64,000 nt of DNA from Cenococcum geophilum (lineage: Eukaryota): the NCBI GenBank assembly GCA_050273025.1, contig CP158635.1, positions 17,236,001 to 17,300,000 of the forward strand, in the 5' to 3' direction. Below the pieces are notes generated by a model. It was not told the origin of the DNA. It made no database searches and saw only the letters and a list, made by a program, of their open reading frames with translations. This document shows, in pieces, positions 8,071 through 64,000 of this stretch. Position numbers and translations under genes: made by a program. The first letter of the stretch is position 1. The number at the start of each line of letters is the position of its first letter.

Positions 8071-8722
8071 ATACTTAAAGCCTCTTCTTTTTTATACGCG
8101 CAACGTCGTGCCCGTACTATTGCTATAATTTTATTACTTAGTAAAATAATACTATCTCTATATTCTTGTTATTCGAAAAAGGGGTTAGTTTATATTATAT
8201 TAGCGAGTCCTTTATCTTAACAGCCCTCTTCCTGTTTAGAGTATACTAGAGTAAACATTTAATCGTCTTACAATATTCGCTTTACTTCTAACGCTAAGTA
8301 TACGCGTCCTATAACTCTTAATAGTCTCTAAGTTCCCTAAGTAATTTATTATAGGGTCTTATATTTAATCTGCTACTATAAAGCTTAATAGTAACCTAGC
8401 GTAGGCCCTTATAGAGCTTAAGCGTTCTTAGGATGCGGAATAGAAGGCCCTAGATGCCCGTATTACGGCGTCTACCCGTTTACTTTATCTTAAGAAAGTT
8501 CGTAAGAAGGTCTATTTTAAGGAGTAGAAACTTATAAAATAAGGTTTATAGGAACTTAGTAATAAAAAAACGGATTCTTTTCTAACAGAGGAGAAAATAA
8601 CTCTAAGTAGTTCAGCAGTCGCTCTTCCTAAGTCCCCCTTAGGTGACTTATTCTTTAGCGATTCTTCTTTATCAATATTGCCTAACCTTTTCTCTTTTAA
8701 TACTTCTGTACCTTTCCTATAG
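8071..8722 (+). pseudogene. RIP-damaged antisense accessory gene of G3: Zn2Cys6-like plus coiled-coil protein; exons 8071-8299 and 8355-8722
   Basis: De-RIP reading MPKASSS...PCSRCSKEGLVCVALASPLSRQPSSCSECTRANIRSSCDVRS..DAE/WSRIQSAAAKLD...ARLLRLEKVRKKV. Same exon 1 length (229 nt) and intron length (55 nt) as in G4 and G5. Confidence 0.78.
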
Positions 8723-24266: not shown

Positions 24267-24705
24267 TATTACGGACGCTTTAAGTATAATGTTATAACTA
24301 CTTGGAGAGGAGTCGGAAGAAGCTAGTTAGTTAATTTAGGCACAGTCCAGGATAGAGCCAGTAGAGCCATGTGACGAGAAATGGTAACTAAGGTCATATG
24401 ATATAATCTGTATAATCTATAGAATCTGTGTAATCCGTAACAGAGTAGACAAAGTATACGTACCTCACGTATAAAGGGGATTTCTTAGAAGTACGGTTGT
24501 GTATTTAAAGGACCACAGTCCTTACCTAGATAGTTCTCTCCTTTATAGTAAATCTATTGGGCAACCACTCCACTAGTTATTATTACGTTGTTAACTTCTT
24601 ATTTACCTATATACCTAGCCTATTAATAAGTCCACCGTAGTTTTTACTATAAGGCTTTATTATATATTTACTACTAAGGTTATAGTATTAATAAAGTCGA
24701 ATAAT

Positions 24706-27700
24706 ATACCACCAAAAGCAGCCACTGCGACGCCATTAACGGCGGCAACTACTTCGAGGTTAGGTAACGACACTAGTATAGTAGATACTAACTTATAGCA
24801 ACCTATAACGGTTGGACAGTTATAAGAGATAGTTGACCAGTTAATAGAAAATAATGCGATATTGGAAAATAGGATTAACGGGATAGGTGCAGTAAAGGTT
24901 AAGTTACTATTGATTAAAAGATACTTAGGAGAAAGATTAAAGCTTAAAGGATTCCTTACGCAAATGTACTTTAAGGTAGTATAGGAGGGAGCAAAGCTAG
25001 CAACACCTATGGATTAAATAGTATATACAGGACTGTTCTTAACAGGAAGAGCACTTAAATAGTTTAAGCCTTACCTTATAGAGATATAAGTAAATGGAAT
25101 AACAATAATAAACTAAGAAGTACGGTTTATATTTTCTAGCTAGAATGGATTTATGGAGCGACTTATATAAATATTCGGAGACCCAAAGGCAGTAACCACG
25201 GCGGAAAAAAAACTCTAAGACATTACGTAACGAACCTTAGCAATTAAGTATATAATATAGTTCTAAACATTAGTAATATAAGTAGAGTGGAATAATAGGG
25301 CGCTTATGGTATAGTATAAACAGGGACTTAAGGCTAAAGTCTAGGACGTGATTATCTTAATAGAAGATGCGGACACCCTAAGGGAACTAATAGATTAAGT
25401 AATTAAGATTAACAATTGGATCTACTAAAGGGAATAGGCTAAGAGAGGCTAGGATAGAGTTTTACAGTTATATAAGGCGCAGAGTACGTAATAACTAAAG
25501 CTAAGTTAAAAACTATGGTATAGCGCAGAGCTAATAGACCTAAGTGGTACTAAAAAAACTAGAAGATAGAATACACGACTATGGAAACCTAGAGGATAAG
25601 GATTAAGTAATTAAAGGTTTAAGGAGTAAAGGCCAAACTAGGGATCTTAGCAGCAGAAGACGTTTAGGCGGACTCTATAGTAAGAAAAATGGTTTAAAGA
25701 AGGAGCTTGCATAAATTACGGAAAATAAGGTTATTATATTAGAGACTGTAGAAGTAGGTAAAGTTACTACGCAGTAAAAAGAATAAGACTAGTAGACGAT
25801 ATATATATAGAGGGATAATAATATACTATAAGAAACAAAAGAATATTTAATTAAAAGTTTTACGTTTTGTTATAATAACACATACCAAATTTATAAGGAC
25901 GCTAAGTACGGCGTAAGCTATTAGCTATAAGAGCTAGTACCTATAGAATATAGAGGAACCAATGAACCAGTTCGCAGATCGGACATTAAGGACGATAAAT
26001 TCGACGTAGGCGAAATATTCCGTAACGATAAGGCGATAAGGGCTACTTATTAGAAGTGAGTAGACCTTAGAGATATTATACTAGAGGTAGAGGATAATTC
26101 CACTATAGAATAGGGAACATTAGTAGGGATTAAGACCCTACTAGACACGATATCTATCGCTTTGCGAGACGTAAGAGAAGTAGGATAGTAAACTACTTTG
26201 GTACTTAATAAAGGTAAAAGGCTAAAGGCTTAAGATTCTTAAAACGAGATGTAAGACGACTAAGATTCTTAAGACGAGATAAGGTAAGCTTAAGGACCTA
26301 TAACGGACGATAACCAATAGAGTAGAGTAATAGCTTAGTTTAGTAATATACGAATAAGCTTAGGATAAAGTTTCCTAAAGGCATAAGACTTTTAAGATGA
26401 GATAAGTAAGATTTAAAACTCTTAAGATAAGATAAGAATACTAAGTAAGCCTAGTTGGACTAAGGCTGGAGTAAGGCTTAAGATAGAAGTAAGCTCGGGA
26501 TTGAAAATCTAAAGGGGTTAAGAATTCGGAGTATAAATAAGGACACCCACGAACAAGAGGTAAGAGGCTTCTTTATAAATTAAAGAATTTATAGCGTAAA
26601 TAGTAATTAGATTAGGAGATAGGTATATAGACCTAAAAGACTTACTAGGAGAATATAGTGTTCGGCCTAAAGATTAAAATGTTAATACTAAGATTAAGAA
26701 GTAAGAAGACTTTGAGGATTTAAGCGTAAGACGCGAACCAAAAAAAACCATGGAAGAATTTAGATAAAGAATTACCGTATAGTAAGAATAGAAACTAGAT
26801 AAGAGATCTAGCATATTAGGACGTATAAAGGATAGAGCACTAGTATAAAGAATTACTAATAGACCTAGGGCAGGCATATTAAGAGTTAAGTGGCTTATTA
26901 AACTAGAAGATAAAGAGGATTTAGGGATCCCTACTAGGTTTAAAAAACGATATATAAAAGGCTGTTATAACGTAATAATAAGAAGATACTTCCTTACAGA
27001 CAAGCCGTATATGCTTTAGCAGCTGTACTAAAAGTGGTATAGGTAAAGGCATAATAATAAGTAGGAAGATTTCTATATATAGTTAGATAAAAGAGTTATC
27101 TAAGACCACCTAATTATAGAGAAGGCTATAACTTATATTAAAGGAGCCTTAATTATAACGTTAAAGGATTTAGAGGAACAATTAGAGGACTAGAGAAGCA
27201 AGAGACGCATTTTAGTACCCGTAAATAAAGTTATAACGTTTAGATTAGTATAATAAAGGTTTAAACTTAAAGATAAAGACGAGTTAAAAGTTAACCTAAA
27301 GTACCTAGTATACTATACGCTATTATAGATTGCATATATAGACGATATATATAAGATATATAAGAATCTAAAGAAAAAAAATTAGAAATACTCTGTAAGG
27401 ATGTACTAGATAATAAATAAGTAATAGTATAAGAATACTAAATATATGCACGGATGGCATCCAGTAAAAGTCTAAGAGGAAGGAGATTTAATACTTTAGC
27501 CAGGAAGATTCCTTATAGAAGAATGCTTAGACGGATAATAGTAGTAGGAATGCCTAAAGAATATATATCTATGGTATATTAAAGATAAAAAGCGAACTAG
27601 ACATTAGCTAAAGAGCGAGCTAAGTATAATAGGATTAAGCCGCTAATAGTTAGGAAAAGTGGAGGCCCACGGAACTAGAGGGAGCCAGTAGTAGAGCCTT

Positions 27701-30700
27701 AGACCCTTAAAGGAATTTAAGGACAATACCTAAATTTATAAGTTAATTAGTAAGATTAGCAGTTTAAAGCGCTAATAGATAGTGGAGTAACGCGGAACTA
27801 TATCTTACTAGTAGTAGTTAAGAGAATAAGATTACCTTATAGACAGAAGGAACAACCTTACCTATTAGTTACGATTTTAGGAGATCTAATAGCCTATAGA
27901 GGAGGGATTATTAATTTTAAAATAGGACCTATTTAGATAACCATTAAAGGGAGATAAATTAAGATGTCTTTTAATATCCTACCATTGGGACGGGATAAGG
28001 CAGTATTAGGCATGCCTTAGTTATAGGAATACAATCCAAAAATCAATTAAATTATAGGTTAGGTTAATATTAAAAATACTTAACGCTATAAGATGTGACA
28101 GTAAACTAAGTTAGTATAGTACTAAGTTAGAGTAATATATAAAGAGACTAAGCGAGGCTTAAGTTATATACTAAAGAGATACTATAAGTATAGTAAGAAA
28201 CTATAGTTACCGGAAAGTAAAAAGCTGGCAAATTATATAGTATAGGACTATAAGATAGAGTTAGAACCGGAAATAAGTCTAAGGTTTTTTCTAACCTATA
28301 AGCTTACTTAAGAGGAGGCAAGCGCACTTAAAGAGTTTGTCTAAGAAAACTTACGAAAGGGATATATTAGACTATCGCAGTTATTAGCGGGATATCTAGT
28401 ACTATTCGTACTAAAGAAAAATGGAAAGCTTAGGTTATATATTAACTATAGATAGTTAAATAGCATTACTCGGAAGGATAGGTATTCTTTACCCTTAATT
28501 AGCGAAATCTAGGATTGGATAGATAACGCGTAAATCTTTATAAAGATAGATCTAAGATAGGCATACTATTAGATTAGAATCAAGGAAGGCGATAAATAAA
28601 AGGCAGCCTTTAGGTCAAGAGAAGGACTATATAAGCTATTAGTTATACAATTCGGATTAATAAATACACCTATAACGTTTTAGAAACGAATTAATAGCGT
28701 ATTAGGAGAACACCTTAATGAGTTTATTATAGTATACCTTAACGATATTATTATCTACTTAATAACTAAGAAAGAATATGGAGAATACGTTAAATAGGTC
28801 TTAAGGAGACTATAGGAAGAATAGATACTAGTAGTAATTGAGAAGTGTAAGTTCTTTACCAGGAAGACCGACTTTGTTAGATTTATTATTAAACTAGGTT
28901 ATATTAGTATAGACCTAAAAAAAATTGAAGCTATAGTGAGTTAGCAAGAACTAGAGAATGTGACGCAGTTAAGGTTATTTTTAGGGTTTTGCAACTACTA
29001 CAGAAGGTTTATAGTATAATAGTTAAAGAATATTAAACTATTTACTAGGCTTATAAAGAAAGAGAAACTATAGGTATAGGGAGATAAATAAAGAAAGTTG
29101 TTTAAGAAACTTAAGGAGTTATTTACCTAAGAGCTAATCCTTAAGATCTATTAACTAGGACTAGATACGGTTGTAAAAACGGACGTATTAGACTACGTAC
29201 TAGGAGTATATTTACTATAAAAGTATAAGGACGTATAGCATCCAGTAGCATACTATAGTAGAAAGATAACACTACCAGAGTTAAACTATAACGTTTATAA
29301 TAAGGAGTTATTAGGTATAATTATAGCACTTAAGGAATAGAGAGCATTCTTACAAGGCGCAGAGAAACTATTTATAGTTAAGACGGATTATAAGAACCTA
29401 ATAGGGTTTTTAATAATAAAAGAACTTAATTAGAGATAGGTTATATGGGTAGAGATGCTTACAGAATACCATTTTAAGATTTAGTATACTAAGGGAACTG
29501 AAAATGTAAGAGTAGACGCACTTAGTAGAAAAGCTAAACTATAAAATAATGAGAAACTATTAGGAGCAATACTACGCAGAGATAAGGATGGATTAATCAG
29601 ATACAATTACCTAAAACTAGCAGTAACTTAAGAGGATAACGAACTAAGAAGAGTCTATAAGATACTAGGAAGCTTTTAGGCATAAAGAATTCTAAAGGCA
29701 TAGCTAGAAGATCCATAAATGGATATATACGAAAATCAAAAAGTAAAGTATATCCTAAAAAGCATAGCAGAGTATTTTATAGAAGATTTCTATAAGGAAA
29801 TAACTTAAGGACATAATAGGGCAACAGGCTTAGTGTTAAGACTTTAAGAAGAATATATTATTAACGGAATCTGGAATATTATAAGAAAAGTAATAAAGGA
29901 ATATTTAGATTGCTAAAGGAATAAATTAATAAGGCATAAGCTATATAGAGGGCTATAACCTATTAAAATACTAGAAAGACCATAGGAAGTTATATTATGG
30001 GACTTTATTATTAAGTTACTAAAGTTAAGAGACCCTATTACCAGATAAGATCACGACGTAATCTTAGTAATAGTAGATAAGCTTATAAAGTGGGGATACT
30101 TTATAGCATATATAGAAGAAATATTAGCGGAAGATATTGCTAGAATCTATATTAAAGAAGTGTTTGTACAATATAGAGTACTAAGTAAAATTATATCGGA
30201 TAGAGATCTAAGATTTATAGCAGCATTTTAGAAAGTATTTTTAGTAGAGTAAGGAGTTTAAGCAGTAACTTCTACCGTATATTATCTATAGACAGACGGT
30301 TAAATGGAAAGATTAAATTAGATGCTAAAACAGTATCTAAGATATTATATCAATTATATATAGAAAAATTAGGTATTGCTATTACTAGTTATATAGTTTG
30401 TATATAATATAACACTACAGAAAGGAATAGGCATATCACTATTTAAGGCAAATTATGGATATAAGCTAAGAATATCGTTATTACTATAGTAAGCAAAGAA
30501 AATAAGTAGCACAGCTAAAAAAAGAATAAAGATACTAATAAATCTTTATATAGACCTTATAGAATTAGTAAAAAGGGTATAAAAGAGAATAAAAAAGTAC
30601 TATAATGCTAAGAGATCTAAGGGACTAGATCTTAAGGAGGGAGATAAAGTATAGCTATTATATAAAAATTTTAAGAGTTAATAATTAAGTAAGAAGTTGG

Positions 30701-31100
30701 ACCACGTTAGGCTAAGACCTTTTAAAATTATATAGAGGATTTTACCGGTTATATTTAAGTTAAACCTATTAGCTAAGATAAAGATCTACCCTATATAGCA
30801 TATCGCAATACTAAAGCCAGCACACAGGAATATTAAGCTACTAGTTTACAAAGCAGACACGTATAGAGGATAAAAAGAAGACAAATAGCAAGTTTTAAAG
30901 ATTATTAGTTATAAGGACATTAACGATAAAATATAGTATAAGGTTAAGTAGATAGGCTATACTAAGACTACCTAGAAGCCACTAGAGAATTTAAAGAATG
31001 CTATAAGAAAGGTATAGGAGTATTGGAAAAGATTAGGTTAGGTAGCATTAATAAAAAAGGATTACTAAAGAATAAGTCACCTAAGGGGGACCTAAGAAGA
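24706..31100 (+). pseudogene. gag-pol of G4 (Gag-CCHC, PR, RT, RNase H, IN, chromodomain), many RIP stops; end approximate
   Basis: CINCGKQGHYARDC near 25708; ALVDSGATRNYI near 27770; YLDD near 28735; YYSRK..PELNY..KELL near 29250; chromodomain ..YEVKW.GY.ETTWEPLENL near 30875-31000. Confidence 0.9.
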
Positions 31101-31652
31101 GTAGTTACTGAACTACTTAGATTTGTTTCCTTCTCTATTAGAAGAGAATCCGTTTTTTTATTACTAAGTTCCTATAAACCTTATTCTATAAGTTTCTACT
31201 TTTTAAAACGGACCTTTTTACAAACTTTCTTAAGACGGAGTAACCGAGCGGACGCCGCAATACGGGCTTTAAGAGCCTTCTACTCTATATCCTAAGAACG
31301 TTCTAACTTAGTAAGGGCTTAAGACAGTTTACTATCTAGCTAAGCAGTAGCAGATTAAATATAAGACCCTAAGATAAATTAGTTAAGAAACTAGACAACT
31401 ATTAAGAGTAATAAGTTACGTATATTTAGTATTAGAGATAGAGCAAACGTTATAAAACAAATAAATATTCGCTTTAGTGCACTCCGCGTAAAAGAACAGT
31501 TATCGCGAAGATGGACTCGCTAACGTAATATAAACTAACCCCTTTTTTAAACAGCGAGAATATAGAGACGGTATAATCTTACTAAGAGACAATATTGTAG
31601 CAATGGTATAAGACCAACGAGCTGTAGACGAAAAAGGAGGAGCCTTTAGTAT
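31001..31652 (-). pseudogene. RIP-damaged antisense Zn2Cys6-like plus coiled-coil gene of G4; exons 31652-31424 and 31368-31001
   Basis: Same structure as in G3 and G5. Cys2 (TGT) and Cys5 (TGC) codons intact. Intron (G)TACGT...ACTAAT...TAG. Confidence 0.78.
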
Positions 31653-32181
31653 AATAAGTAAAGATGTTAACCAAATTGATTAGACGGATATTATACCTCT
31701 AGTAAACGACTTAGAGATATTTAGGATCTTTAAGGACGAAGATAAAGAGGAGGGAGATAGTGTTACGGACGCTTTAAGTACAATATTACGACTACTTAGA
31801 GAGGAGTCGGAAGAAGCTAGTTAGTTAATTTAGGTATAGTCTAAGATAGAGTCGGTAGAGCTATATAATAAGAAATAGTAACTAAGGTTATATAATATAA
31901 TCTATATAATCTGTAGGATCTATATAATCCGTAATAGAGTAGATAGAGTATACGTACCTTACGTATAAAGGGGATTTCTTAGGAGTATAGTTGTGTATTT
32001 AAAGGACCACAGTCCCTACCTAGATAGTTCTCTCCTTTGTAGTGAATCTTAGAATATAATTAAAGTTAATCTATTAGGCAACCACTCTACCAGTTATTAT
32101 TACGTTGTTAACTTCTTATTTACCTACATACCTAGCCTATTAACAAGTCCACCGTAGTTCCTACTATAAGGCTTCGTTATA

Positions 32182-49571: not shown

Positions 49572-51182
49572 AAGGTTTATAATAAGGGCAATTTATATTA
49601 TTTTAAATTTAAATAGTTATATATATGTTTATAGGGTAAGTAATATTTTAAATAATAGCTTAGGCAATAGGTTATATAGAACTTAAGTATTTCTTTAACC
49701 TAGCTAATTAAAGGGTTATGTTATTTTAGCTATTTATATCTAAGTATTACTTTATAATACTTTAGGGGTATTATAAATAGGGAAATATATTTAAGGTATT
49801 TACTTATCCGCAATTTTATAAGAGCGTAGTACGTTAGTTTACTATATATTAAGGGTTTACTATTAAAGCCTTATAGGCCTTAAGGCTTATTAAGTTTCTT
49901 TAAATTTAGGTATTAAGTTTTTGCGTAGTTCGTATTAATAAAGCCTATACTAGTAGCTCCGCTATCTATTAGGATTTATACCTTCTTTTATTTTTTAAGT
50001 ATTTAAATTTCGCTAAGTATATTAAGGGAGTTATATTATATATTAGCGCTAGAAGAGCCTAAATACTTATACTCTTCCACTTTTTATCTTAAGGCGTAAC
50101 TTGGCCCTAGAATAATTTATTTTCTAAGTTAAGTAAAGGTAAGATACTTTATAGTAATTAAGTATAATTTATAAAATAAGTATAATTTAAGGACTAAGAG
50201 GAATTATAGCGGACCTTTTTAAAGGGGTAAGTTTAGTAATTCCTTTAAATATATCCCTTTTTACTATATCTAAAGCATTCTCTATTTATAGCTCGTGTTC
50301 TTTATTTATTAGTTCTTAAGGGTATATAGGATTAAGTAGCGTTAAGGTCTATAGAGTTATATATAGGGCTTTTAGGTTTTAGAGATAGGTCGCGCTTTAG
50401 GGTATATACCGGTTTCGTAGAGTTTTAGATATAAGGTATAGTTAGCTTTAGAAAATAAGTCTATTTGTTATCCCTTGGCCCGTCAGCGTCCAACGAGTAG
50501 TGGTCCGTACGCGAATACCAATTTCAAAACAACAAGTGTACTTACCTACTACAATGCAGAATACAGTTCTACAGGAAGGGTAAGTGCTAGCAACTTTATA
50601 TCAAGCGACTTAACTCCTAAAATTAGGCGTGTATATCAAATTATTACAAATTAAAAGCGTTATGTTCCTCAGTACGGGCGTTAAATTCAGCGCGGTTAAC
50701 TGGCTAGTTCTTATCGATAACCGTTAGACGCGAATTGACGGGCCAAGGGATATTAAAGGTCCTTATTAATTCGTTAATATATTATAGCAAATTTAGGTAA
50801 GTTTTTTAGTAATTCCCTACCTACTAACTAGGCTCTAATTTTATCTAAAATAGCTTATTAAAGAGTAACAACTTTAGCAGCTTTATTTTAATCTAGCTTA
50901 CTAATAAAACCTAAAAATTCTAAAAAAGCTAGTAAAGTCTTAGTTCCGTTATTATAGTTTCTTAAGTTTTATAATAGCTATATATTCGCGGCTAGCGTTA
51001 TTATATATTAATTTTAGTAAAGAGATAAAGATTTTAAAGTTAATAAAGGTGCTATTATAGAAGAATAGGTCTATAGTTTATATAGCGTCTTTACTTAAAT
51101 AAGATATTCTATAGCTAATTTTGCTAGCTTTAGTAGGGTATTAGTTATAGTTTATTAAAAGTTTAAGGCGGAGCTTAATTAT
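49572..51182 (-). pseudogene. Older Gypsy family C, fragment 4: protease and gag (contains MITE-2)
   Basis: IDSGAT.IGFIDTNYA near 49920-49970; gag-like ..YDDASREY.A..KL.KL.QRN.DF near 50930-51010. Confidence 0.75.
50472..50749. mobile_element. 278-bp non-autonomous TIR element (MITE-2)
   Basis: Perfect 14-bp TIR CCCTTGGCCCGTCA, AT on both sides, not RIPed; same CCCTTG terminus as MITE-1. Confidence 0.9.
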
Positions 51183-51686
51183 TGTCACAGTACGTGCCGA
51201 CTGTCAAGGTACGAAGTACGAGGTAACTTATCAGCATTTTGTTGGGGTGCTAAGATCCTAAAGGCCTCCTGACAGGATTTTGACTTTCCTGGAGGTCCTG
51301 ATTGTTTTAGTAGGCTCCTAGCAGGCTTCTGGCAGGCTCCTAGCAGGATTTTGATTTTCCTAATTGTTCTAGTTGTCCTGACAGGCTCCTAGTAGGATCT
51401 TTAATTTCCTAATCGTCCTCTTACGGTCCTGTTAGGGTCCTAATAGGAAACTAGTATTTCCTAATTGTTCCTAACAGGCTCCTAGCAGGATCTTAATTTT
51501 CCTAATCGTCCTGTTAGGTTCCTGACAGGATACCCCTAAGCGACACCCCCCCCCCCAAAGCGACACCTCCTATGCACACCCCTTAAGACACCCCCCCAAT
51601 GCGACACCCTCCCCACTGTAATACCCCCCCTAATAGGATACCTCCCCCCTAATGCGACACGACCCTATGTGCGCGTGCGCGTGACA
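51183..51686. repeat. Putative 504-bp LTR-like segment (TGTCAC...GTGACA) with internal repeat arrays
   Basis: Abrupt composition change at 51183 and 6-bp inverted termini. No partner or TSD in the window. Confidence 0.45.
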
Positions 51687-51819
51687 CACAGTGCTATTAG
51701 GTCCCCGCTATATTCCCAATAGCCTACACGTGCCTCTGCCAAGTTACCCCCTTTACAGTCACCCCATTCTTTACCCTTCCTTATATCCTCCCTTAGGAGG
51801 CACTAGAACGGCAGCCAGC

Positions 51820-52610
51820 AGAGGACCGTCGCCAAAACCAGACGACCGTCGCCAGAACCAGACGACCGTTATAAGAACTAGACGACAACCTTTCGAACAA
51901 CCAGCTAGCGAAGACCACGAACAATTCAATTGATCGATTAATCGAATTTAATATTGGCCTATTACCGAATCGTATCAAGGCCTCCTAGGGAGGCACCCTA
52001 GATAACTACCGTTCGAATGTACAGCTAGCGAACGGCCATAGAGAACGACCTGGATTAATTAGAGCCTTCGATCAGGCCGACCTCTCCCCTAAATTAAATT
52101 AGATACTGACATAGGCAGGCAGGCAGGTAGGTAGGTAGGTAGGTAGGTAGGTAGGTAGGTAGGTAGGTAGGTAGGTAGGTAGGTAGGTAGGTAGGTAGGT
52201 AGGTAAGTAGGTAGGTAGATAGGCAGGTAGGCAGGCAAGTAGGAGAGGACCGTTGTCAGAACCAGACAATAATCGTTCGAACGACTAGCCAGCGAACACC
52301 ACGATCGATTCGATCGATCGATCGAATCGAACTAGAGCCTTAATATCAGCCTATTACCGAATTAAATCAAATCAAGGCCTCCTAGGGAGGCACCCCAGAT
52401 GACCACCGTTTAAACGTACAGCCAATGAACGCCCATGGAGAACGATTCGAATCAATACAATTAATCGCAATCGAATTAAGCAGAGCCTTCGATCGGGCCG
52501 ACCTCTCCCCCGAATTACAGATATAGACAGGTAGGCATAGACAGGTAGGCACGACAGGCACAGGCAGGCATAGATAGGTAGGATAGGCAGATAGGCAGGT
52601 AGGCAGGCAC
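51820..52610. repeat. Diverged tandem duplication (~425-bp unit), each unit ending in an AGGC/AGGT-rich tract
   Basis: AGAGGACCGT..AACCAGAC, GCCTATTACCGAAT, ATCAAGGCCTCCTAGGGAGGCACC and AGAGCCTTCGATC.GGCCGACCTCTCCCC each occur twice in the same order. Confidence 0.8.
52113..52238. repeat. (AGGT)n/(AGGC)n microsatellite
   Basis: Directly visible tetranucleotide run. Confidence 0.95.
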
Positions 52611-53883
52611 TAGGCCTAGTTAGGAAATCAGCACACGGCCGGCGGATTATCGGGAACACCACCAATCGACGATTTAGAGCCTCCGCGAGAGGCTCCTTAG
52701 TTAATCGCCCGACGCCCGAGCGATTATAGAGCTCTATAACAGACACAGGCGGTAAACAGGAGAGATTTATTTAGATTATTTAGATTATATATAATTAAAA
52801 TTAATTTTGTATTTTTTAACTAGCTGCAAATACTGGAGTGTTAATATACCTTATTAAAAGGAGCTCTTGCTGCACCCGGCCTAAAAAGACCAAAACCAAC
52901 CAAAAGAACCCTGAAAAACACCCAGAGAATCCCCCTGAGATGCATGCATCGCAGGGGAGGCACACGTTAAACGACGGTGGCTCGCACTTACGCGCGACCG
53001 CTAGAACTACGCCTAGCAATGGCCCTCTATAATAAAGACGGGCGAATACCACACTATAAAGCGGAAATACCTTTATTAAGAAGGCATCTAATAAAATATA
53101 AAGCCTATTAGACGCGTTTAGTATCTAGAATTATAGGGGAGTAACTATTAGCTATAATAAACTAATATAGCTAGTAGAATAGCTCCGCTAGTCTAGTAAA
53201 CCTTAGGCGCCCCTTTAGTAAACCCTTAATTAAATCCTCTAACGGCTAAGTAAAATTAAAAATAAGTATAACCCCCCCTTATCAGCGAACCGTACCTAGG
53301 CCGCCGTAGCTACGCTTTTATAGCATAGGGAACCCACCTCCCTTAAGTTAATAACCGGGTATATAATTATAATATAACCAAATACAGAATAAGCAGAGGG
53401 GCTTAGGGGATAATTAGAAATAGAAGTCCTTATAAAGATACGTAAAGAGGTTTATAACGCTATTATAGTCCAATACCTTAAGAGCGGAGATATTAGAGTT
53501 ACCCTAAAGGACTAATAGGCAAAGGAATAAGCCGTAAGGGTAGGGGATAGGCTAGAAGAACGTATTAGTATAAAAGTACTTCGTAAGGATTACCTAGTTA
53601 AAGTCCTAGTGGTTTTTATAAGCCTTAGGGTAGAAAAGGGACGCTAGGCGGACAATATAGCAATTATATAGGAGATAGTAAGATAAACGGAACACCTTAT
53701 ACTAGGACTTAAAATCACCTAAATCTAATAGCTTTAATAGGAAAATATAAACTAAGTATATAATAAGAATAATAAGAGGATATAAGGGTCGCTAGAAACT
53801 TGCTAAGGAGACGCTAAATAAATACATGGCTCCCTTATCGTTAGTATATATATACTAGGAATGCAAAAACTCCTTATCTAAAA

Positions 53884-56800
53884 TGTTACGGACGCTTTAA
53901 GTACGATGTTACGACTACTTGGAGAAGAGACGGAAGAAGCTAGTTGGTTGATTTAGGTATGGTCTAGGATAGAGCCGATAAAACCATATAATGAGGAATG
54001 GTAATTAGGTCACGTGATATAATCTATATAATCTGTGTAATCTATATAATCTATAATAGAGTAGATAGAGCAGATAGAGCAGATAAAGCAATGACTTTCT
54101 TAAGAGTACGGATGTGTATTTAAAGGACCATAGTCCCTACCTAGATAGTTCCTTTCCTTGTAGTAATTCTCAGAATATAATTAGAGTTAATCTGTTAGGC
54201 AACCACTCCACCAGTTATTATTATATTATTAACTTTTATACTTGCATTTCTTATACACCTAGCCCAATAATAAGCCTATTGTAGTTCTTGCTACAAGGTT
54301 CCGTTATACAATTACTACCTAGTTACGATATTAATATAAGAAGTTAAACAACATGCTACCAAAAGCAGCCACTATAATGCCATCGACGGCAGCAACTACT
54401 TTAGGGACAGGAGGTAATACTAGTATAGCAGATACTGACTTATAGCAACCTGTAACGGTCGGACAGCTATAGGAAATAGTTAACTAGCTAACAGCTAATA
54501 ATATAGTATTAGAAGAAAGACTTAACGGGATAGGAGCAGCAAAGATTAAGCTATTATTAATTAAGAGATTTATAGAAAAGAGGTTAAAGCTTAAAGGATT
54601 CCTTATGTAGATATACTTTAAGGTCTTATAAGAGGGAGTGAAGTTACTTATACCTATGGATCGGATAGCCTACGCAGGACTATTCTTATTAGGAAAAGCA
54701 CTTAAGTGGTTTAAACTTTACCTTACGGAGATACAGGTAAACGGAATAACGACTACTAACCAAAATATGCGATTTATGTTCTTAAGTTAGGAAGAATTCG
54801 TAGAATGACTTACGCAGATGTTTAGAGACCCGGAAAAAACAACTATAGCGGAAAGAAAACTCTAGAACCTTATATAATAAACTTTAGTAATTAAGTATAC
54901 AATATAGTTCTAGACACTAGTAATATAAGTAAAGTAGAATAATAGGGCGCTTATGGCATAGTATAAACAGGGACTTAAGGTTAAAGTCTAGGATGTAATT
55001 ATCCTAATAAAAGATGCGGATACCCTAAGGGAACTAATAGATTAGGTAATTAAGATTAATAATTGGATTTACTAAAGGGAACAGGCTAAGAGAGGCTAGG
55101 ATAAAGTTCTATAGTTATATAAGGCGCAGAGTACGTAACGATAAAAGCTAAGTTAGAAATTATAGTATAGCGTAGAGCTAATAGACCTAAGTAGCACTAA
55201 AGAAACCTATAAGAAATAGAGTAAACTATAGAAACCTAGAGGATAAGGATTAAGTAATTAAAGGTCTAAGGAGCAGAGGCTGAATTAGGGATCTTAATAG
55301 TAGAAGATATTTAGGCGGACTCTATAGCAAGAGAAATGGTTTAAAGAAGGAGCTTATATAAATTGCGGAAAATAAGGTTATTATATTAGAGACTATAAAA
55401 GTAAGTAGAGTTACTACGTAGTAAAAGGCATGAGATTAGTAGACGATATATACGTATAAAGGGACGATAATATACTGCGAGGAATAAAAGAATGTTTAAT
55501 TAGAAGTTTTACGTTTTGTTATAATAATATATACCGAATTTATAAGGACGCTAAGTATAGCGCAAGCTATTAGCTATAAGAGCTAGCACCTATAGGATAT
55601 AGAGGAACTAATAAACTAGTTCGCAGATTGGATATTAAGGACGATAAATTTAACCTAGGCGAAATATTCCGTAATAATAAGGTAATAAGGGCCGCTTACT
55701 AGGAGCGAGTAGACCTCGGAGATATTATACTAGAGGTAGAGGATAATTCTACTATAAAATAGGGAATATTAGTAGGGATTGAAACCCTACTAGATATAAT
55801 GTCTATTGCTTTGCGAGATATAAGAGAAGTAGGACAGCGAACTATTTCGGCACTTAATAAAGGTAAAAGGCTAAAGGCTTAAGATTCTTATAGCAAGATA
55901 AGAGATAACTAAGATTCTTAAAACGAGATAAGGCAAGCTTAAGGACCTATAATAGATAATAACCAATAGAGCAGAGTAGTAGCTTAGTTTAAAAATATAT
56001 AAATAAGCTCGGGACGGAAGTTCCTATAGGTATAAGATTCTTAAGACGAGATAAGTAAGATTTAAGACTCTTAAGACGAGATAAGAACACTAAGTAAGCT
56101 TAGTTAGACTAAGGCTGAAGCTAAGCTTAAGTTAGAAGTAAGCTCGGGATTAAAGAACCTAAGGGGTTAAGAATTTGGGGTATAAATTAGGACACCTATA
56201 GATAAGAGGTAAGAAGCTTCTTTATAGATTAGAGAATCTACGGTATAAATAGTAATTAGACTAGGAGATGAATATATAGACTTAGAGGATTTACTAGTTA
56301 AATAAAGTGTTCGGACTAAAGATTAAAAAGTTAATACTAGGATTAAAAAGTAAGACGACTTTAAGGATTAGAGCGTAAGGCGTAAACTAAAAGAAACTAT
56401 AGAAGAGTTTAGGTAAAGAATTATCGCATAGTAAGAATAGAAACTAGATAAGAGATCTAGTATATTAGGACGTATAAAGGATAGAGTACTAGTATAAAGA
56501 ATTACTAATAGACTAAAAGCAGGTATACTAAGAGCTAAGTAGCTTACTAAACTAAAAGATAAAGAGGATTTAGGGATTCTAATTAGGTTTAAGGAACAAT
56601 ATACTAAAGGCTATTACGACGTAGTAATAAGAAGATACTTCCTTACGGATAGACCGTATATACTCTAGTAGCTATACCAAAAGTAGTATAGATAAAGGCA
56701 CAATAATAAGTGGGAAGATTTCTATATATAGTTAGATAAAAAAGTTATCTAAGACCACCCGATTATAGAGAAGGCCATAACGTATATTAAAGAAGCCTTA

Positions 56801-59800
56801 ATTATAACATTAAAGGATCTAAAGGAACGTTTAGAGGACTAGAGAAGTAAGAGATATATCTTAGTACCTATAAATAAAGTCGCAATATTTAGATTAGTAC
56901 AATAAAGGTTTAAACTTAGGGATAAAGATAAGCTAAGAGTTAACCTAAAGCACCTAGTATACTATACGTTATTATAAATTGCGTATATAGACGATATATA
57001 CAAAATGTATAAGAATCTGAAGGAAAAAAATCGGAAATACCCTATAAGGATATACTAGATAACGGATGAGTAATAGTATAAGAATGCTAAATATATATAT
57101 AGATAGCATCCAGCAGAGGTCCAAGAGGAAGGAAGTTTAGTACTTTAACCAGGAAGATTCCTTATAGAAGAATGCTTAGATAGATAATAGTGGTAGGAAT
57201 GCCCAGAGAACACGTATTTATGGTATATTAAAGATAAAAAGCGAACTAGGTATTAGCTAAAGAGTAAGCCAAATATACTAGGATTAAGCAGCTAATAGTT
57301 AGGAAAAGTAGAGGCCTATAGGACTAGAGGGAGCCAGTAATAGAGCCTTAGACCCTTAAAGGAATTTAAGGATAACACCTAAATTTATAAATTAATTAGT
57401 AAGATTAGCAGTTTAAAGCGCTAATAAATAGTAGAGCAACGCGAAACTATATTTTACTAGTAGCAGTTAAAAGAATGGGACTACCTTATAGACAAAAGAA
57501 GTAACTTTACCTATTAGTTATAATTTTAGGAGATCCAATAACCTATAGAGGAGGGATTATTAATCTTAAAACAGGACCTATTTAGATAACTATCAAAGGA
57601 AGATAAATTAAGATGTCTTTTAATATTCTACCATTAGGACGGAACAAGGTAGTATTAGGTATGCCTTAGTTATAGAAATATAATCTAAGGATCAATTAGA
57701 TTACAGGTTAGGTTAATATTAAAGATACTTAACGCTATAAGATATAATAATAAGCCAAGTTAGTATGGTACTAAGTAGGAGCAACCTATAAAGAAATAGA
57801 AAAAGGACTAAGTTATATACTAAAGAGATACCATAAGTATGGCAAGAAACTATAGTCACTAAAAAATAAAAAGCTATTAAAATATATAGCATGGGACTAT
57901 AAGATAGAATTAGAACTAGGGACAAGTCTAAAGTTCTTTCCAATCTATAAGCTTACCAAAGAAGAAGGTAGAGTATTAAAAGAGTTTATCTAAGAGAACT
58001 TATAAAAAGGATATATTAGACCATTATAGTTATTAGCAGGATATCCAATACTATTTATACTAAAGAAAAATAGCAAACTAAGGCTGTGTATTAACTATAG
58101 ACAGTTAAACAGCATTACTAGAAAGAATAGGTATCCTTTACCCTTAATTAGCGAAATCTAAGATAGGATAGGCAATACGCAAATCTTTATAAAGATAGAT
58201 CTAAGATAGGCGTACCATTAGATTAGGATTAAGAAGGGCAATAAATAAAAGGCAGCCTTTAGGTTAAAGAAAGGACTATATAAACTATTAGTTATATAAT
58301 TTGGATTTATAAATATACTAGTAATATTCCAGAAGCGTATTAACAATGTATTAGGAGAACACTTGGATGAATTTGTTATAGTATATCTTAACGATATTAT
58401 TATCTACTTAATAACCAAGAAAGAACACAGAGAATATGTTAAATGGGTTTTAAAAAGACTATAAGAAGAATAGATGCTAGTAGTAATTAAGAAATGCGAG
58501 TTCTTTACCAGGAAGACCGATTTTATTAGATTTATTATTAAACTAGGCTAACTTAGTATAGATCTAAAGAAGATCGAGGCTATAGTAAATTGGTAGGAAC
58601 TAAAGAACGTTATATAGTTAAAATCATTCCTAGGGTTTTGCAATTACTATAGAAGGTTTATAGCGCAGTGGTTAAAGAATATTAAGCCATTTACGAGGTT
58701 AATAAAGAAAGAAGAACTATAGGCATGGGGAGAGGAGCAAAGAGAACTCTTTAAGAAAGTCAAAGAGTTGTTTACTTAGGGGCTAGTTCTTAAGATCTAT
58801 TAACTAGGACTAGAGACGGTTATAAAGACGGATGCATTAGACTATACACTAGGGGCATACTTTATATAAAGGTATTAAGATAGATGGCACCTAGTGGCAT
58901 ACTATAGTCGAAAGATAACACCACTAAAATTAAACTATAACATCTATAATAAGGAGTTATTAGGTATAGTTATAGCATTAAAGAAATAGAGAGCATTCTT
59001 ATAAGGCATAGAGAAACCATTTATAGTTAAAACGGATTATAAGAACCTAACAGGATTCCTAATAATAAAGGAACTTAACTAAAGACAAGTTAAATAGGCA
59101 GAGATGCTTACAGAATACTATTTTAAGATTTAGTATACTAAAGGTACAGATAATACGCGGGCAGATACTCTAAGCTGTAAAGCTAAACTATAAAATAAGA
59201 AAAAGCTATCGGGGGCTTTATTATAAAAAGATATAGACGGATTAATTAGATATAATTATCCAAAAATTATAGTAACTTAAGAAGATAATAAACTAAAGAA
59301 AGTCTACAAGATACCGGAAAGCTTTTAGGCATAAAGAATTCTAGAAGTATAGCTAGAAGATCCACAAATAGATATATACAAAAATCGAGAAGCGAAGTAT
59401 ATCCTAAGAAGCATAGCAGAACAGTTTATAGAAGACTTCTATAAGGGACTAACTTAAGGATATAATAGAGCTATGGGCTTAGTGTTAAGACTCCAGGAGA
59501 AGTACATTATTGACAGAATCTAAAGGATAGCTAGAAAAGTTATAAAGAAATATTTAGATTACTAAAGGAACAAACTAATAAGGTATAAGCCATATAGAGG
59601 GCTACAACCTATTAAAACACTAGAAAGACCATAGGAGGTTATATTATAGAACTTTATTATTAAGTTACTAAAATTAAGAGATCCTATTACCGGATAAAAT
59701 TATAACGTAATCTTAGTAATAATAAATAAGCTTACAAAGTAGGGATACTTTATAGCCTATACGGAAGAAATATCAGTAGAAGATATCGCTAGAATCTATA

Positions 59801-61855
59801 TTAAAGAAGTGTTTATAAAACATAGAGCACTAAATAAAATCATATTAAATAGAAATCTAAGATTTATAGCAGTATTCTAGGAAGTATTCTTAGTAGAGTA
59901 AGGAGTTTAAGCAGCAACTTCCACCGCATACTATCCGCAGACAGACAGTTAAACGGAAAGATTAAATTAGACGCTAGAGCAGTATCTAAGGCATTATATT
60001 AATCACGTATAGAATAATTAGGTATTACTATTACTAGTTATATAGTTTACATACAATACAACACCTTAAAAAGGAATAGGCACATTACTATTTAAGGCAA
60101 ATTATGGATATAAGCTAAGAACATCGTTATTACCACGGCAAGTAAAGAAAACGAGTAGTACAGCTAAAGAAAGAATAAAGACATTAATAAATCTTTATAT
60201 AAACCTTATAGAATCAGCAAAGAAAGTATAAAAAAGAATAAAAAAGTACTATAATACTAAGAGATCTAAGGGACTAGATCTTAAGGAGGGAGATAAAGTA
60301 TAGCTACTATATAAAAATTTTAAGAGTTAACAACTAAGCAAGAAGTTAAACTATATCAAACTAGGACCTTTTAAAATTATATAAAAGATTTCACTAGTCA
60401 CATTTAAGTTAAACCTACTAGCTAAAATAAAGATTTACCCTATATAGCATATCGCAATACTAAAGCCAGCACATAGGAATATTAAGCCACCGGTCTATAA
60501 AGCAGACACATATAGAGGATAAGAAGAAGACAAATAGTAAGTATTAAAGATTGTTAATTATAAGGACATTAACAACAAAATATAGTATGAGGTTAAGTGG
60601 ATAGGCTACACTAAAACTACCTAAGAGCTACTAGAGAATTTAAAAAATGCTATAGAAAAGGTATAGGAGTATTAGAAGAGATCAGGTTAGGCAGCATTAA
60701 TAAAAAAGGATCACCAAAGAATAAGTTACCTAAGGGGGACCCAAGAAGAGCAGTTGCCGAACTACTTAGATCTATTTCCTTCTCTATTAAAGGAGAGTCC
60801 ATTCTTTCATCGCCTAGTTTCTATAAACCTTATTCCACAAGTTTCCACTCCTTAGAACGCACCTTCTCGCGCACCTTCTTAAGACGGATTAACCAAGCGG
60901 AAGTAGCCAAACGAGAGTCTAGAGTACGTTATTAAGCATTAGCGGCCTCTCTCTTAGCATCCTAAAAACGATAAAGTTTAGCTAGAGCGACTAACAGCTC
61001 GTTATCTAGCCGCGTAGCAGCAGATTAAATATAAGACCCTAAGACAAATTAATTAGGGAACTAGAAGACTATTAAGAGTTATAGGACGCGCATACTTAGC
61101 GTTAGAAGTAGAGCGAATATCACAGGACAATCGCATATTTACTTTAGTGCACTCTAAATAAGAGGATAGTTATTAAGATAAAGGACTCGCCAGCGTAATA
61201 CAGACCAACCCCTCTTTTAAATAACGAGAACATAGAGACGGTATAATTTCACCAAGAGATAGTATTATAGCAATAGTACGAGACTAATAAACTGTAGAAG
61301 AGGATAAAGGAGCTTTAGGCATTATAAGTAACAATATTAACTAAATTAATTAGACGGACATCACACCTCTAGTAAACAACTTAGAGATATTAGGAATCTT
61401 CAAGGACGAAGATAAAGAGGAGGGAGATAGTGTTATGGACGCTTTAAGTACAATATTATAACTACTTAGAGAAGAAACAAAAGAAGCTAGTTGGTTAATT
61501 TAGGTACGGTTTAGGATGGAGCCGATAGAACCATATAATAAGGAATAGTAATTAGGTTATATAATATAATTTATATAATCTATATAATCTATATAATCTA
61601 TAATAGAGTAGATAAAGCAGACAGAGTAGATAGAGTAATGACTTTCTTAGGAGTACGGATGTGTATTTAAAGGACCACAGTCCCTACCTAGATAGTTCCT
61701 TTCCTTGTAGTGATTCTCAGAATATAATTAGAGTTAATCTATTAGGCAACCACTCCACCAGTTATTATTACGTTGTTGACTTTTATACTTGCATTTCCTA
61801 TACACCTAGCCTAATAACAAGCCTATTGTAGTTCTTGCTACAAGGTTCTGTTATA
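53884..61855 (+). mobile_element. Full-length Ty3/Gypsy chromovirus copy G5
   Basis: 425-bp LTRs 53884-54308 and 61431-61855; TSD TAAAA (53879-53883 / 61856-61860); gag ATG at 54353; PPT at 61416-61430. Confidence 0.96.
60650..61322 (-). pseudogene. RIP-damaged antisense Zn2Cys6-like plus coiled-coil gene of G5; exons 61322-61094 and 61038-60650 (205 aa reconstructed)
   Basis: ATG intact; Cys1, 3, 5 and 6 codons intact; exon 2 has a 21-nt in-frame insertion relative to G3 and G4. Confidence 0.8.
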
Positions 61856-64000
61856 TAAAAAGGAATAATTATAAATGGCCTTATATATAATATAAGGCTC
61901 TATAACTATAGACTACGCCTAAAATAATACTATCGCTATATATAATAGGGATATACCTAATCTATATACGCAGTATAGGTATACTACGGCTACTATATAG
62001 GCCCCTACAATATAAGATATTGCCTAAATTAAGACTAAATAAAATATATAAACTGCTACTAAAGTATATATAAGGCGTAGAAGAGAGAAGACTATATTAA
62101 ATATAGGAGATAGAAGGTAAGGGCTTAATAGCTGCGGGAATAACTATACGCTAGGTTATATAAATGGAAATAATAGGCGATAAGCTAGGGGGACGTAGGT
62201 ACCTTTTTAGCGTTTCCTACCTTTAATACTAGAGGGCTAGGCTAGCTATCCCAAGCCTTAACGGGCTAGAAGTAACGCTGCGCGATATTACTAGACTAAT
62301 TAGGGATATAAGGGTTATAGGGGACACAAGGGAGAGGACGCCCTATAGAAAGACCCCTATAGACAGTAATAGTAGGCTTAAGACTAGGATAATTAAGAAT
62401 TAGACTTAATGCGGTAAATATAATATTTATAGCCGACCTATAAAGGGTATATAGCTAACTAGTAAGAATAGGGGAAGAACTGGTAATAATAATAGATTTA
62501 GATATAGAAGCGCTAATAGGAATACAAGATATGGGAATAGAAAGCTCTATATAAAATAAGTAGTAACTAGGGTGTAAATATAAGAGATAAAAGCTCTAAA
62601 TATTCTAAAAAAAGTAGAAATAAAAGAAGTAAGGAATAAAGGAGAGTTAAAGGACCCTTGCTAGGGGTTCGCTACCTATCTATTATATAGTATAACTACG
62701 GCAACACAAACCACTACCTCGTAAGGCCCCTACTAGATAGTCTAGACCTAGAGAAATATTATATCCTTGCTATATAAGAGCCGTATTATAATACCTTTAT
62801 ATAATTAATATACTGCCCCTAAGGATTCTAGCTCCTATATAAACTAAAAGCAGCTATATATATATGCTTTATAATTAGCAAGGCTATTAGCCTATCCTTA
62901 TAGTTATAGCAGGTAGTTAACCTAGATATTATAGTTATAATAATCTAAATATATAGGGGACTGGTATAAATTATTAATATATATAACCCTAGGGTTAAAG
63001 GGGTCCTATAAATAGAGAATATTATATTAGTAATAAGCTTACTAGAAACTAAAGGTATAGAGTTTATCCTATTAGGAGATATAAACCTCTACTACCCACG
63101 GTAGGGGGGTATCTATATTACTGTAGATTAATAGTTAAAGTGCCTACTAAGAGCTATAGATATCTGGGGCCTTAAGCTAGCTACCCCCCTAGGAGCAATT
63201 ATATGGCAATAAGGCACCGCTAGAAGTATAATTAACCTTATATTTATAGATAAAGGCCTATATTAAAGACTTAAAAGATATAACCCTAAAGAAGAATAGG
63301 CACTTACCCTAGACTATATCCCTATCTAGATATAGCTAGACCTAGATACTAAAGCGTAACTAAATAGAAAAAGATATATAATAAGGAAGCTTAAGATAAA
63401 CAGTTTCTTTAATATAGTTAAATAATAACTCTAAGACCTAGAAAAAATCCACCTAATACCAAACGAGCGAGGCTTATTAGCTACCCCTAAGGAAATTAAT
63501 TAAAGACTAAAAAGGATCTAGGCAGCAATTAAAAATGGGCTAGAAGAGCACTGCCCGATCTTAAAACTGGGCCCCTATGCGCAACACGTATGGTCTATAT
63601 AATATATAGTTTTAGTTACCAGCTAATAATAAGTAAAAAGAAAATATATAAGTAGCTATAACCCTAAAGATAAGAGACGATATAAAGATATAAGAAACTA
63701 GCTAAAGAATACCCTAAAAAAAGAAGTAAGGAATAACTAGAGACGGTTTATAAATGAGTATACTTCTAACCTAAGCCTCCCCTATAATAAGGGCCTTTAG
63801 GCTATAGTAAAATAGGTAAAGAAAAAGGTAGGGCGCCTAGCAGAAGACTTATACCTACTACCCCTATAAAGAGTAGGAGAATTATAGGCTATAAATGATA
63901 ATAATAAAAAGGCAAAGATTTTTATAGAAAGGTTCTTCCCCTAACTAGCTCTAGTAGACCTTAGTAATATTATGGGCGAAACACTAGTAACTTACCTGTA

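Follow-up and report, generated by a model that had tools for sequence, protein, structure and literature searches.

Relics of a spliced antisense gene for a six-cysteine protein in RIP-degraded Ty3/gypsy chromoviruses of Cenococcum geophilum

We analysed a stretch of 64,000 nt of Cenococcum geophilum DNA (GenBank assembly GCA_050273025.1, contig CP158635.1, positions 17,236,001 to 17,300,000; hereafter the window), which is AT-rich throughout (GC 0.27-0.42) and whose content is degraded repeats. One family of long terminal repeat (LTR) elements was mapped in it by self-BLAST and alignment, using the antisense region and the whole G5 element as queries; the copies are termed G5, G4, G3 and G2, and further fragments are present. 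In G5, G4 and G3 we confirm the dead remains of a spliced six-cysteine gene that runs antisense to gag-pol, with the pol chromodomain on one side and the polypurine tract (PPT) on the other. The existence of this gene, its position, its orientation and its splice junction are demonstrated here, together with purifying selection on it and its death in the window by repeat-induced point mutation (RIP). What the window preserves is very probably a conserved accessory gene that belongs to a single lineage of Ty3/gypsy chromoviruses of ascomycetes, in three copies inactivated by RIP and a fourth that is truncated.

Exon and intron limits in the window were set by projecting an intact relative, L002, onto it (Table 1), and they matched the limits at which the original prediction had placed an antisense frame in the same three copies. 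In each of G5, G4 and G3 the frame has two exons (229 nt, a 55-nt intron and 368-389 nt). G5 carries a 21-nt insertion in exon 2 relative to G3 and G4, and its antisense stop codon falls inside or beside the end of the pol chromodomain. G2 has lost the PPT and exon 1 along with the intron and the beginning of exon 2, and keeps the last ~80 codons; a partial copy had been predicted there. When the minus strand of G5 is read from position 61322, an ATG is followed by the expected peptide, interrupted by stops; G4 and G3 can be aligned to it along its full length. Nine internal stops are found in the spliced reading of each of G5, G4 and G3, the donor GT has become AT in all three and the start codon survives in G5 only: these antisense genes are relics killed by RIP. 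Surviving cysteine codons are scattered over the copies (C1, C3 and C6 in G5, C2 in G4, C4 in G3, C5 in both G5 and G4), and the projection verified the claim that each is intact in at least one copy and that G5 keeps its ATG. When RIP was undone in the window copies only (reverting C-to-T and G-to-A changes), exon 1 was open with six cysteines, followed by a second, frame-shifted stretch with three stops remaining. This treatment also reduced the stops in all six frames and left one pol-strand frame rather open too. Because window-only reversal of RIP opens every frame to some degree, evidence from beyond the window was required.

G5 exon 1, translated with stops as X, retrieved 18 short open reading frames (ORFs; E 1e-19 to 2e-7), all of which have tyrosine at some of the cysteine positions and are RIPed copies in other records. 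With G5 exon 2 as query, 31 proteins were matched in a representative library of 1.84 billion sequences, five of them at E<=1e-10. Metagenome contigs were scanned with five un-RIPed exon-2 peptides as queries; 87 stretches encode a relative and 80 loci were retained. RIP has affected most of them (GC 0.31-0.42 near the match); two, L001 and L002, are free of it (GC ~0.5), and the gene is intact in both. In L002 it runs from an ATG at 4034 through exon 1 (to 4274) and an intron at 4275-4329 (55 nt, GTACGC...CTAG) to a TAG stop at 4716-4718 and encodes 209 amino acids (aa), and the gene of L001 has the same structure (~200 aa, GT..AG intron). L043, from a more distant subfamily (~46% identical), keeps the six cysteines and the intron position (donor GTACGT) and has a frameshift in exon 2. 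The spacing C-x2-C-x6-C-x13-C-x2-C-x8-C is constant across all subfamilies found, and the un-RIPed relatives agree closely with the peptide and spacing that the original prediction had obtained by undoing RIP.

To follow the gene over many copies, 114 BLAST pieces were collected, and the 89 that cover at least 850 nt of the 1075-nt reference were aligned (L002, 85 other locus copies and the 3 window copies). All 89 rows reach from the PPT into pol, and the position of the gene is thus constant. The six cysteine columns contain only cysteine or tyrosine (Cys/Tyr 32/57, 52/37, 40/49, 39/50, 78/11 and 57/32), tyrosine being the RIP product of cysteine. Fifteen copies start with ATG and 73 with ATA; the splice donor GT is present in 24 of the 89, the acceptor TAG in 85 and the stop TAG in every one. 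A de-RIP consensus built solely from the 86 RIPed copies is free of stops over its 209 spliced codons and retains all six cysteines, a result beyond what chance would give. L001, L002 and the alignment likewise bear out the expectation of a conserved, intron-bearing antisense gene between the chromodomain and the 3' LTR. The intron itself is exactly 55 nt long in 88 of the 89 copies and lost in none, while exon 2 takes many indels; its fixed length could come from the open pol frame on the opposite strand or from splicing constraints.

Selection was assessed by codon position, counting transversions in the alignment since RIP does not make them. By antisense codon position 1/2/3 they number 256/124/663 in exon 1 and 460/460/1036 in exon 2. 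L001 and L002 differ at 16-19% of sites within the antisense gene, and these differences are distributed 8/3/27 over the antisense positions in exon 1 and 14/15/39 in exon 2, with 24/20/59 in a pol-only control and an aperiodic intron (5/4/2 by pol position). Because the intron is 55 nt long, the phases of the two strands differ between the exons: third positions of both strands coincide in exon 1, and antisense position 3 lies opposite pol position 2 in exon 2. The excess of changes at pol second positions in exon 2 therefore means that the antisense frame is the constrained one. Ratios of nonsynonymous to synonymous substitution (dN/dS, Nei-Gojobori estimates for L001 vs L002) are 0.062 for antisense exon 1, 0.224 for antisense exon 2 and 0.115 for pol proper; for the pol frame they are 0.20 over exon 1 and 1.32 over exon 2. 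The antisense gene is under purifying selection in its intact relatives, where the cysteines are conserved and dN/dS is not near 1.

A new observation is that the pol frame is stop-free across the whole antisense gene in these two intact relatives. In L001 and L002 the pol ORF continues past the chromodomain for ~320 codons, through the antisense gene, its intron and the PPT, to a stop that lies 120-140 nt inside the 3' LTR (the equivalent in G5 is window ~60650-61560, plus strand). When the antisense protein was held fixed and synonymous codons were redrawn from the element's own usage, only 1.0-1.4% of the L002 shuffles and 4% of those for L001 left the pol frame without a stop, and this still held with dinucleotide bias at codon junctions modelled; in the reverse shuffle, with the pol-frame protein fixed, the antisense exons were open in 5.2% and 2.6%. 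The TpA observed/expected ratio is 0.38 and 0.58 in the antisense-gene region (L002:4034-4715 and L001:258-903), compared with 0.67 and 0.71 in gag-pol. Over exon 2 the amino-acid sequence of the run-on is not conserved, as its dN/dS above 1 indicates, and the de-RIP consensus of the 86 RIPed copies has 3 stops in the run-on frame vs 3 and 12 in the other pol-strand frames. This moderate evidence from two related elements suggests avoidance of stops in the pol run-on, not conservation of a protein tail; as a speculation, stop avoidance might spare the genomic RNA a long untranslated 3' part.

The splice junction is visible in five database ORFs (P0020, P0023, P0052, P0058 and P0061) that read straight across it (...SDAE-W-SRV...) with no intron, exactly where the original prediction had put it (...SDAE/W). 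These ORFs are on contigs of 921-1423 nt, none has RIP-type Cys-to-Tyr changes, and one of them, P0061 (239 aa), spans the whole protein. All long genomic loci aligned retain the intron, and in several copies a branch-site-like CTRAY motif stands 12-15 nt before the acceptor. The short intron-less contigs are probably assembled cDNA of a spliced antisense mRNA from active elements. P0061 is in frame upstream through the PPT region into LTR-like sequence, which would fit a start in or near the LTR. Two genomic copies that tblastn had suggested to be intron-less, L025 and L077, were dropped, since the alignment shows the intron in both.

The elements that carry the gene are listed with its parts in Table 1. 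One plus-strand frame of G5 (stops as X) matches the Pfam families RVT_1, RT_RNaseH, RT_RNaseH_2 and SH3_Tf2-1 and closes with a chromodomain-like stretch at ~60.6-60.7 kb; the equivalent part of L002 gives a partial Chromo match (E 5.9e-4). The minus strand of G5 has no Pfam match at E<=0.1. Between the chromodomain and the PPT of G5 lie ~700 bp, which is long for a fungal Gypsy element. The LTR pair of G5 differs at 41 of 428 positions and all 41 differences are transitions, a clean RIP signature; because every one is of the RIP type, the divergence is useless for dating the element. Just to the left of G5, window positions 50001-54000 have a GC of 0.38-0.42, vs ~0.3 elsewhere. At window 4184-4621, G2 adjoins an LTR that the following copy, G1 (4611-1), uses as its 5' LTR, and the two look like a tandem pair sharing one LTR, with a deletion at the joint.

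Table 1. Element copies, their LTRs and the parts of the antisense gene. Positions are those of the window unless a relative is named.
Feature	Position	Strand	Description	Basis
G5	53884-61858	+	Full-length RIP-degraded Ty3/gypsy chromovirus; order LTR-gag-pol-antisense gene-PPT-LTR	Self-BLAST
G4	24269-32181	+	Ty3/gypsy copy	Self-BLAST
G3	13510-7542	-	Ty3/gypsy copy	Self-BLAST
G2	7541-4621 plus LTR 4611-4184		Ty3/gypsy copy lacking full length	Self-BLAST
G5 5' LTR	53884-54311	+	428 bp	90.4% match to 61431-61858
G5 3' LTR	61431-61858	+		Self-BLAST, match to 5' LTR
G5 PPT	61402-61430	+	Polypurine tract	Purine-rich run adjoining TG start of 3' LTR
G5 pol chromodomain end	60590-60700 (approximate limits)	+		Read-through translation; L002 equivalent matches Chromo
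G5 exon 1	61094-61322	-	229 nt; start ATG intact; encodes six-Cys domain; three stops of RIP type; Cys 2 and Cys 4 changed to Tyr	
G5 intron	61039-61093	-	55 nt; donor GT to AT (RIP); acceptor TAG kept	L002 projection; 89-copy census
G5 exon 2	60650-61038	-	389 nt including stop TAG; coiled-coil part and acidic tail; 6 RIP-type stops	
G4 exon 1	31424-31652	-	Start codon now ATA	L002 projection
G4 intron	31369-31423	-	55 nt; branch-site-like CTAAC	L002 projection
G4 exon 2	31001-31368	-		L002 projection
G3 exon 1	8071-8299	+	Start codon now ATA	L002 projection
G3 intron	8300-8354	+	55 nt	L002 projection
G3 exon 2	8355-8722	+		L002 projection
G2 remnant	4612-4855	+	Last ~80 codons of exon 2, joined straight to LTR	Alignment
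Stop-free pol run-on	L002:3784-4761 and L001:29-~950	-		Two un-RIPed relatives

In the protein, residues 1-33 form a basic, Ser-rich arm (net +4) and residues 34-72 the six-cysteine domain; residues 73-158 are 71% Ala/Leu/Glu/Arg/Lys/Gln, and residues 159-209 make an acidic tail (net -6), 43% of it Ser, Thr or Pro, in which a Phe-rich motif and a TP-x-PF at the C-terminus are conserved. AlphaFold2 modelled residues 77-151 of P0058 (24 sequences) as a single helix with a predicted local distance difference test score (pLDDT) of 96-98. This helix, together with composition and charge, supports the helical region and acidic Ser/Pro tail that had been predicted to follow the cysteine cluster. The predicted layout of basic arm, six-cysteine domain, long helix and acidic tail would fit a dimeric regulator.

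Domain assignment relied on eight sequences that have all six cysteines (L001, L002, L022, L043, P0058, P0061, P0062 and P0064), searched against Pfam. DUF3716 (PF12511, curated cut-off 22 bits) matched five of the eight at 20.1, 18.6, 17.4, 16.4 and 15.4 bits (E 6e-4 to 0.018), in alignments that run over profile positions 3/7-59 of 59, and gave no match in P0058, P0061 and L043. Zn_clus (PF00172, cut-off 21 bits) scored 17.0 (E 0.0063, L002), 16.5, 16.5, 14.9, 13.6, 13.5 and 11.6 bits; with the exception of L043 (11.6 bits), these matches, of at least 13.5 bits, cover only profile positions 16/18-33/37 of 39 and fall onto the first cysteine triad. Among the eight sequences Zn_clus matched six, and for five of these the alignment was confined to the second half of the profile. 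In a protein-language-model atlas the domain lies nearest to Ascomycota clusters (0.90, 0.89 and 0.86), and in the first neighbouring cluster to carry any Pfam family (score 0.77), 28% of the members have DUF3716, which we take as a lead only. From these sequence comparisons the domain is best called DUF3716-like: it appears to resemble DUF3716 more than the Gal4 zinc cluster, while falling below both thresholds.

The Gal4-type zinc cluster is the other point of comparison. Such clusters have the spacing C-x2-C-x6-C-x5..12-C-x2-C-x6..8-C and a basic stretch between Cys 2 and Cys 3 through which they contact DNA, and in Gal4 the cysteine cluster is followed by a linker, a coiled coil and an acidic tail. 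The protein encoded here is similar in its six cysteines (2-6-n-2-n), in the linker, coiled coil and acidic tail that come after them and in its weak Zn_clus matches. Of its spacers (2-6-13-2-8), four are within the Gal4 ranges and the loop is one residue beyond. It differs in that the matches are sub-threshold and extend over half the profile, in the spacers of 13 and 8, and in the missing basic residues between Cys 2 and Cys 3. The Gal4-type Zn2Cys6 membership suggested by the original prediction was not borne out (11.6-17.0 bits against the 21 of PF00172, and no zinc-cluster match in the PDB by profile), and of its interpretation as a whole the real spliced antisense gene, the splice site and the layout found support, and the family assignment did not.

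A number of results weigh against our reading of the gene and its product. Every Pfam score of the protein stays under the curated cut-off of the family concerned (DUF3716 at 20.1 vs 22 and Zn_clus at 17.0 vs 21 come closest), and the RIPed exon 1 of G5 has no Pfam match. A profile search of the PDB returned no zinc-cluster protein, only chance-level matches to C2H2 linkers (E>=0.09), and a single-sequence search (phmmer) gave only LEU3 at E 1.7, which we take as chance. The cysteine domain is modelled with low confidence, at pLDDT 51-69 in the 152-aa AlphaFold2 model and, when modelled alone (28 sequences), at a mean pLDDT of 55 and a predicted template modelling score of 0.27, too poor for fold comparison. 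Foldseek with the 152-aa model found nothing in the PDB at E<=0.001, and the hits to Gal4 (3coq_A, E 8.2) and Pho7 (6e33_A, E 8.8) are not evidence. The stretch between Cys 2 and Cys 3 (A/S-K-E-G-L-V) has one Lys and one Glu in L001, L002 and P0058, without the basic run of Gal4-type clusters. No named fungal protein is among the homologues, which all come from metagenome records, and that the intron-less contigs are cDNA is something we infer.

In its place and orientation, the gene is a member of a kind already published and not a new kind. The antecedent is brtn, which Boty-like Gypsy elements of Botrytis and Sclerotinia carry as an extra gene on the antisense strand, after pol and before the 3' LTR (Zhao 2011, Virology 417:248, as cited in PMC8365987, PMC7264820, PMC4227169 and PMC5987419). 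As a review describes them, those elements are chromodomain-bearing fungal Gypsy elements with an extra antisense gene between pol and the 3' LTR, and the function of such antisense ORFs is unknown (PMC7264820). The element described here is likewise a Ty3/gypsy chromovirus of an ascomycete with its gene on the opposite strand between pol and the 3' LTR, as judged from RVT_1, RT_RNaseH, SH3_Tf2-1 and a partial Chromo match, from LTRs, PPT and RIP, and from the Ascomycota neighbours in the atlas. A Monilinia transcript is reported to match both the truncated Pol and BRTN (PMC5987419), which would make the two neighbouring or overlapping as in the elements here. The comparison of brtn with the window gene is one of position and description only; brtn is absent from the supplements of PMC8365987. 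In the paper library searched, no paper joins LTR retrotransposon, antisense and Zn2Cys6, and none joins antisense gene, retrotransposon, Botrytis and chromodomain; two papers there mention DUF3716.

More distant parallels exist in other hosts. The HBZ gene of human T-cell leukaemia virus type 1 is antisense and spliced, and encodes a basic leucine zipper protein that acts as a coiled-coil regulator. Antisense additional ORFs are also listed for the plant Ty3/gypsy elements RIRE2, Grande, Retand and PvRetro13 in the review (PMC7264820). Common to all is an opposite-strand gene between pol (or env) and the 3' LTR, and HBZ is in addition spliced and coiled-coil; the hosts, however, belong to different kingdoms and no sequence relationship is seen or expected, so that the likeness is one of analogy only. 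As for the domain, DUF3716 (PF12511) is a Cys-rich domain of fungi and occurs in REP9-1 and REP9-2, accessory proteins of an IS3EU-type DNA transposon of Zymoseptoria tritici, and altered expression of one REP9 accessory protein changed pycnidia formation, according to PMC8232023. DUF3716 is the best-scoring Pfam family here over a nearly full profile, and in both cases the proteins are transposon-borne accessory proteins of ascomycetes, but the scores (15.4-20.1 bits) are under the cut-off of 22 and REP9 belongs to a DNA transposon whereas the window elements are retrotransposons.

In these elements the gene faces gag-pol from the other strand, with the end of the pol chromodomain and the polypurine tract as its neighbours, and has a single 55-nt GT..AG intron; an intron in antisense orientation is not spliceable from the sense genomic RNA and therefore survives retrotransposition. 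The intact product, of ~200-210 aa, consists of a basic N-terminal arm, the six-cysteine domain, a ~75-residue helix and an acidic Ser/Pro/Phe-rich tail. An antisense transcript starting in or next to the 3' LTR would be the source of the protein. Our tentative proposal, held with less than even confidence, is that this protein binds zinc via its six cysteines, pairs through the helix and serves as a nucleic-acid-binding regulator of the element's expression or copy number. We infer DNA binding, transactivation and an antisense LTR promoter, for which the zinc-cluster transcription-factor reading may be a reasonable model of action. A more elaborate scenario, unlikely when taken as a whole, is that a dimeric zinc-cluster-like regulator made from a spliced antisense mRNA of the 3' LTR would bind the LTR and tune sense transcription or copy number as a counterpart of HBZ, with its gene overprinted on a pol run-on kept open for a reason other than its amino acids and with the DUF3716-like domain recruited independently by DNA transposons.

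For such a regulator speaks the order of basic arm, cysteine cluster, long helix and acidic-hydrophobic tail, which is that of the classic fungal zinc-cluster activators; nor did Pfam find an RNA-binding or any other domain in the six-cysteine sequences that would point to another activity. It is nevertheless quite possible that the protein is real and does something other than bind DNA as a regulatory factor, for instance to bind or chaperone RNA, to tether the element to a host protein (for targeting or to evade silencing) or to form multimers with Gag or integrase, given that neither Zn_clus nor any solved zinc-cluster protein is matched significantly, that basic residues are few inside the cluster and that its best sub-threshold match is to a domain of unknown function, DUF3716, recorded in the unrelated DNA transposon REP9 of Zymoseptoria (PMC8232023). 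An improbable alternative is that the gene is a passenger, captured from the host and of no benefit to the element. LTR elements often owe their accessory ORFs to capture, as is generally known and as the review notes (PMC7264820), and no function is known for this one; but it occupies the identical place in 89 of 89 near-full-length copies, including subfamilies only ~46% identical (L043), its dN/dS (0.06-0.22) is near that of pol (0.115), and the pol frame is stop-free in two intact elements while the antisense protein is the conserved one. The constant place, the low dN/dS and the stop-free pol overlap thus indicate a long co-evolution with the element. Least probable by far is that the gene is an artefact, the mirror of a true pol C-terminal extension or a product of undoing RIP, since this reading, which could appeal to the pol frame being open across the whole region into the LTR in L001 and L002 and to the loss of stops in all six frames when the three window copies are de-RIPed, is already contradicted by the codon-position and dN/dS tests (changes in exon 2 fall mostly at pol second, that is antisense third, positions, with 39/68 between L001 and L002 and 1036/1956 transversions in the 89 copies, and the pol frame there has a dN/dS of 1.32) and also faces antisense exons that are stop-free in only 2.6-5.2% of pol-protein-fixed synonymous shuffles, cysteine columns that vary only by RIP, and an intron with GT..AG ends and a branch-site-like motif that is removed in five database ORFs.

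Accessory genes are rare among LTR retrotransposons, and for hardly any of them is the function known. The one described here is overlooked by gene finders and repeat maskers: it is antisense, spliced and, in intact elements, wholly inside an apparently long pol ORF, and the stop-free pol frame over it is a possible case of dual coding. The window copies are dead and uninformative on function, but L001, L002 and the P0058/P0061 family provide expressible, testable sequences. If the more elaborate scenario were true, the DUF3716-like domain would be a general fungal transposon-control module. With purifying selection as strong as on pol, conservation in diverged subfamilies and the layout of a dimeric regulator, the gene is a promising candidate for a control factor that a fungal transposon encodes itself.

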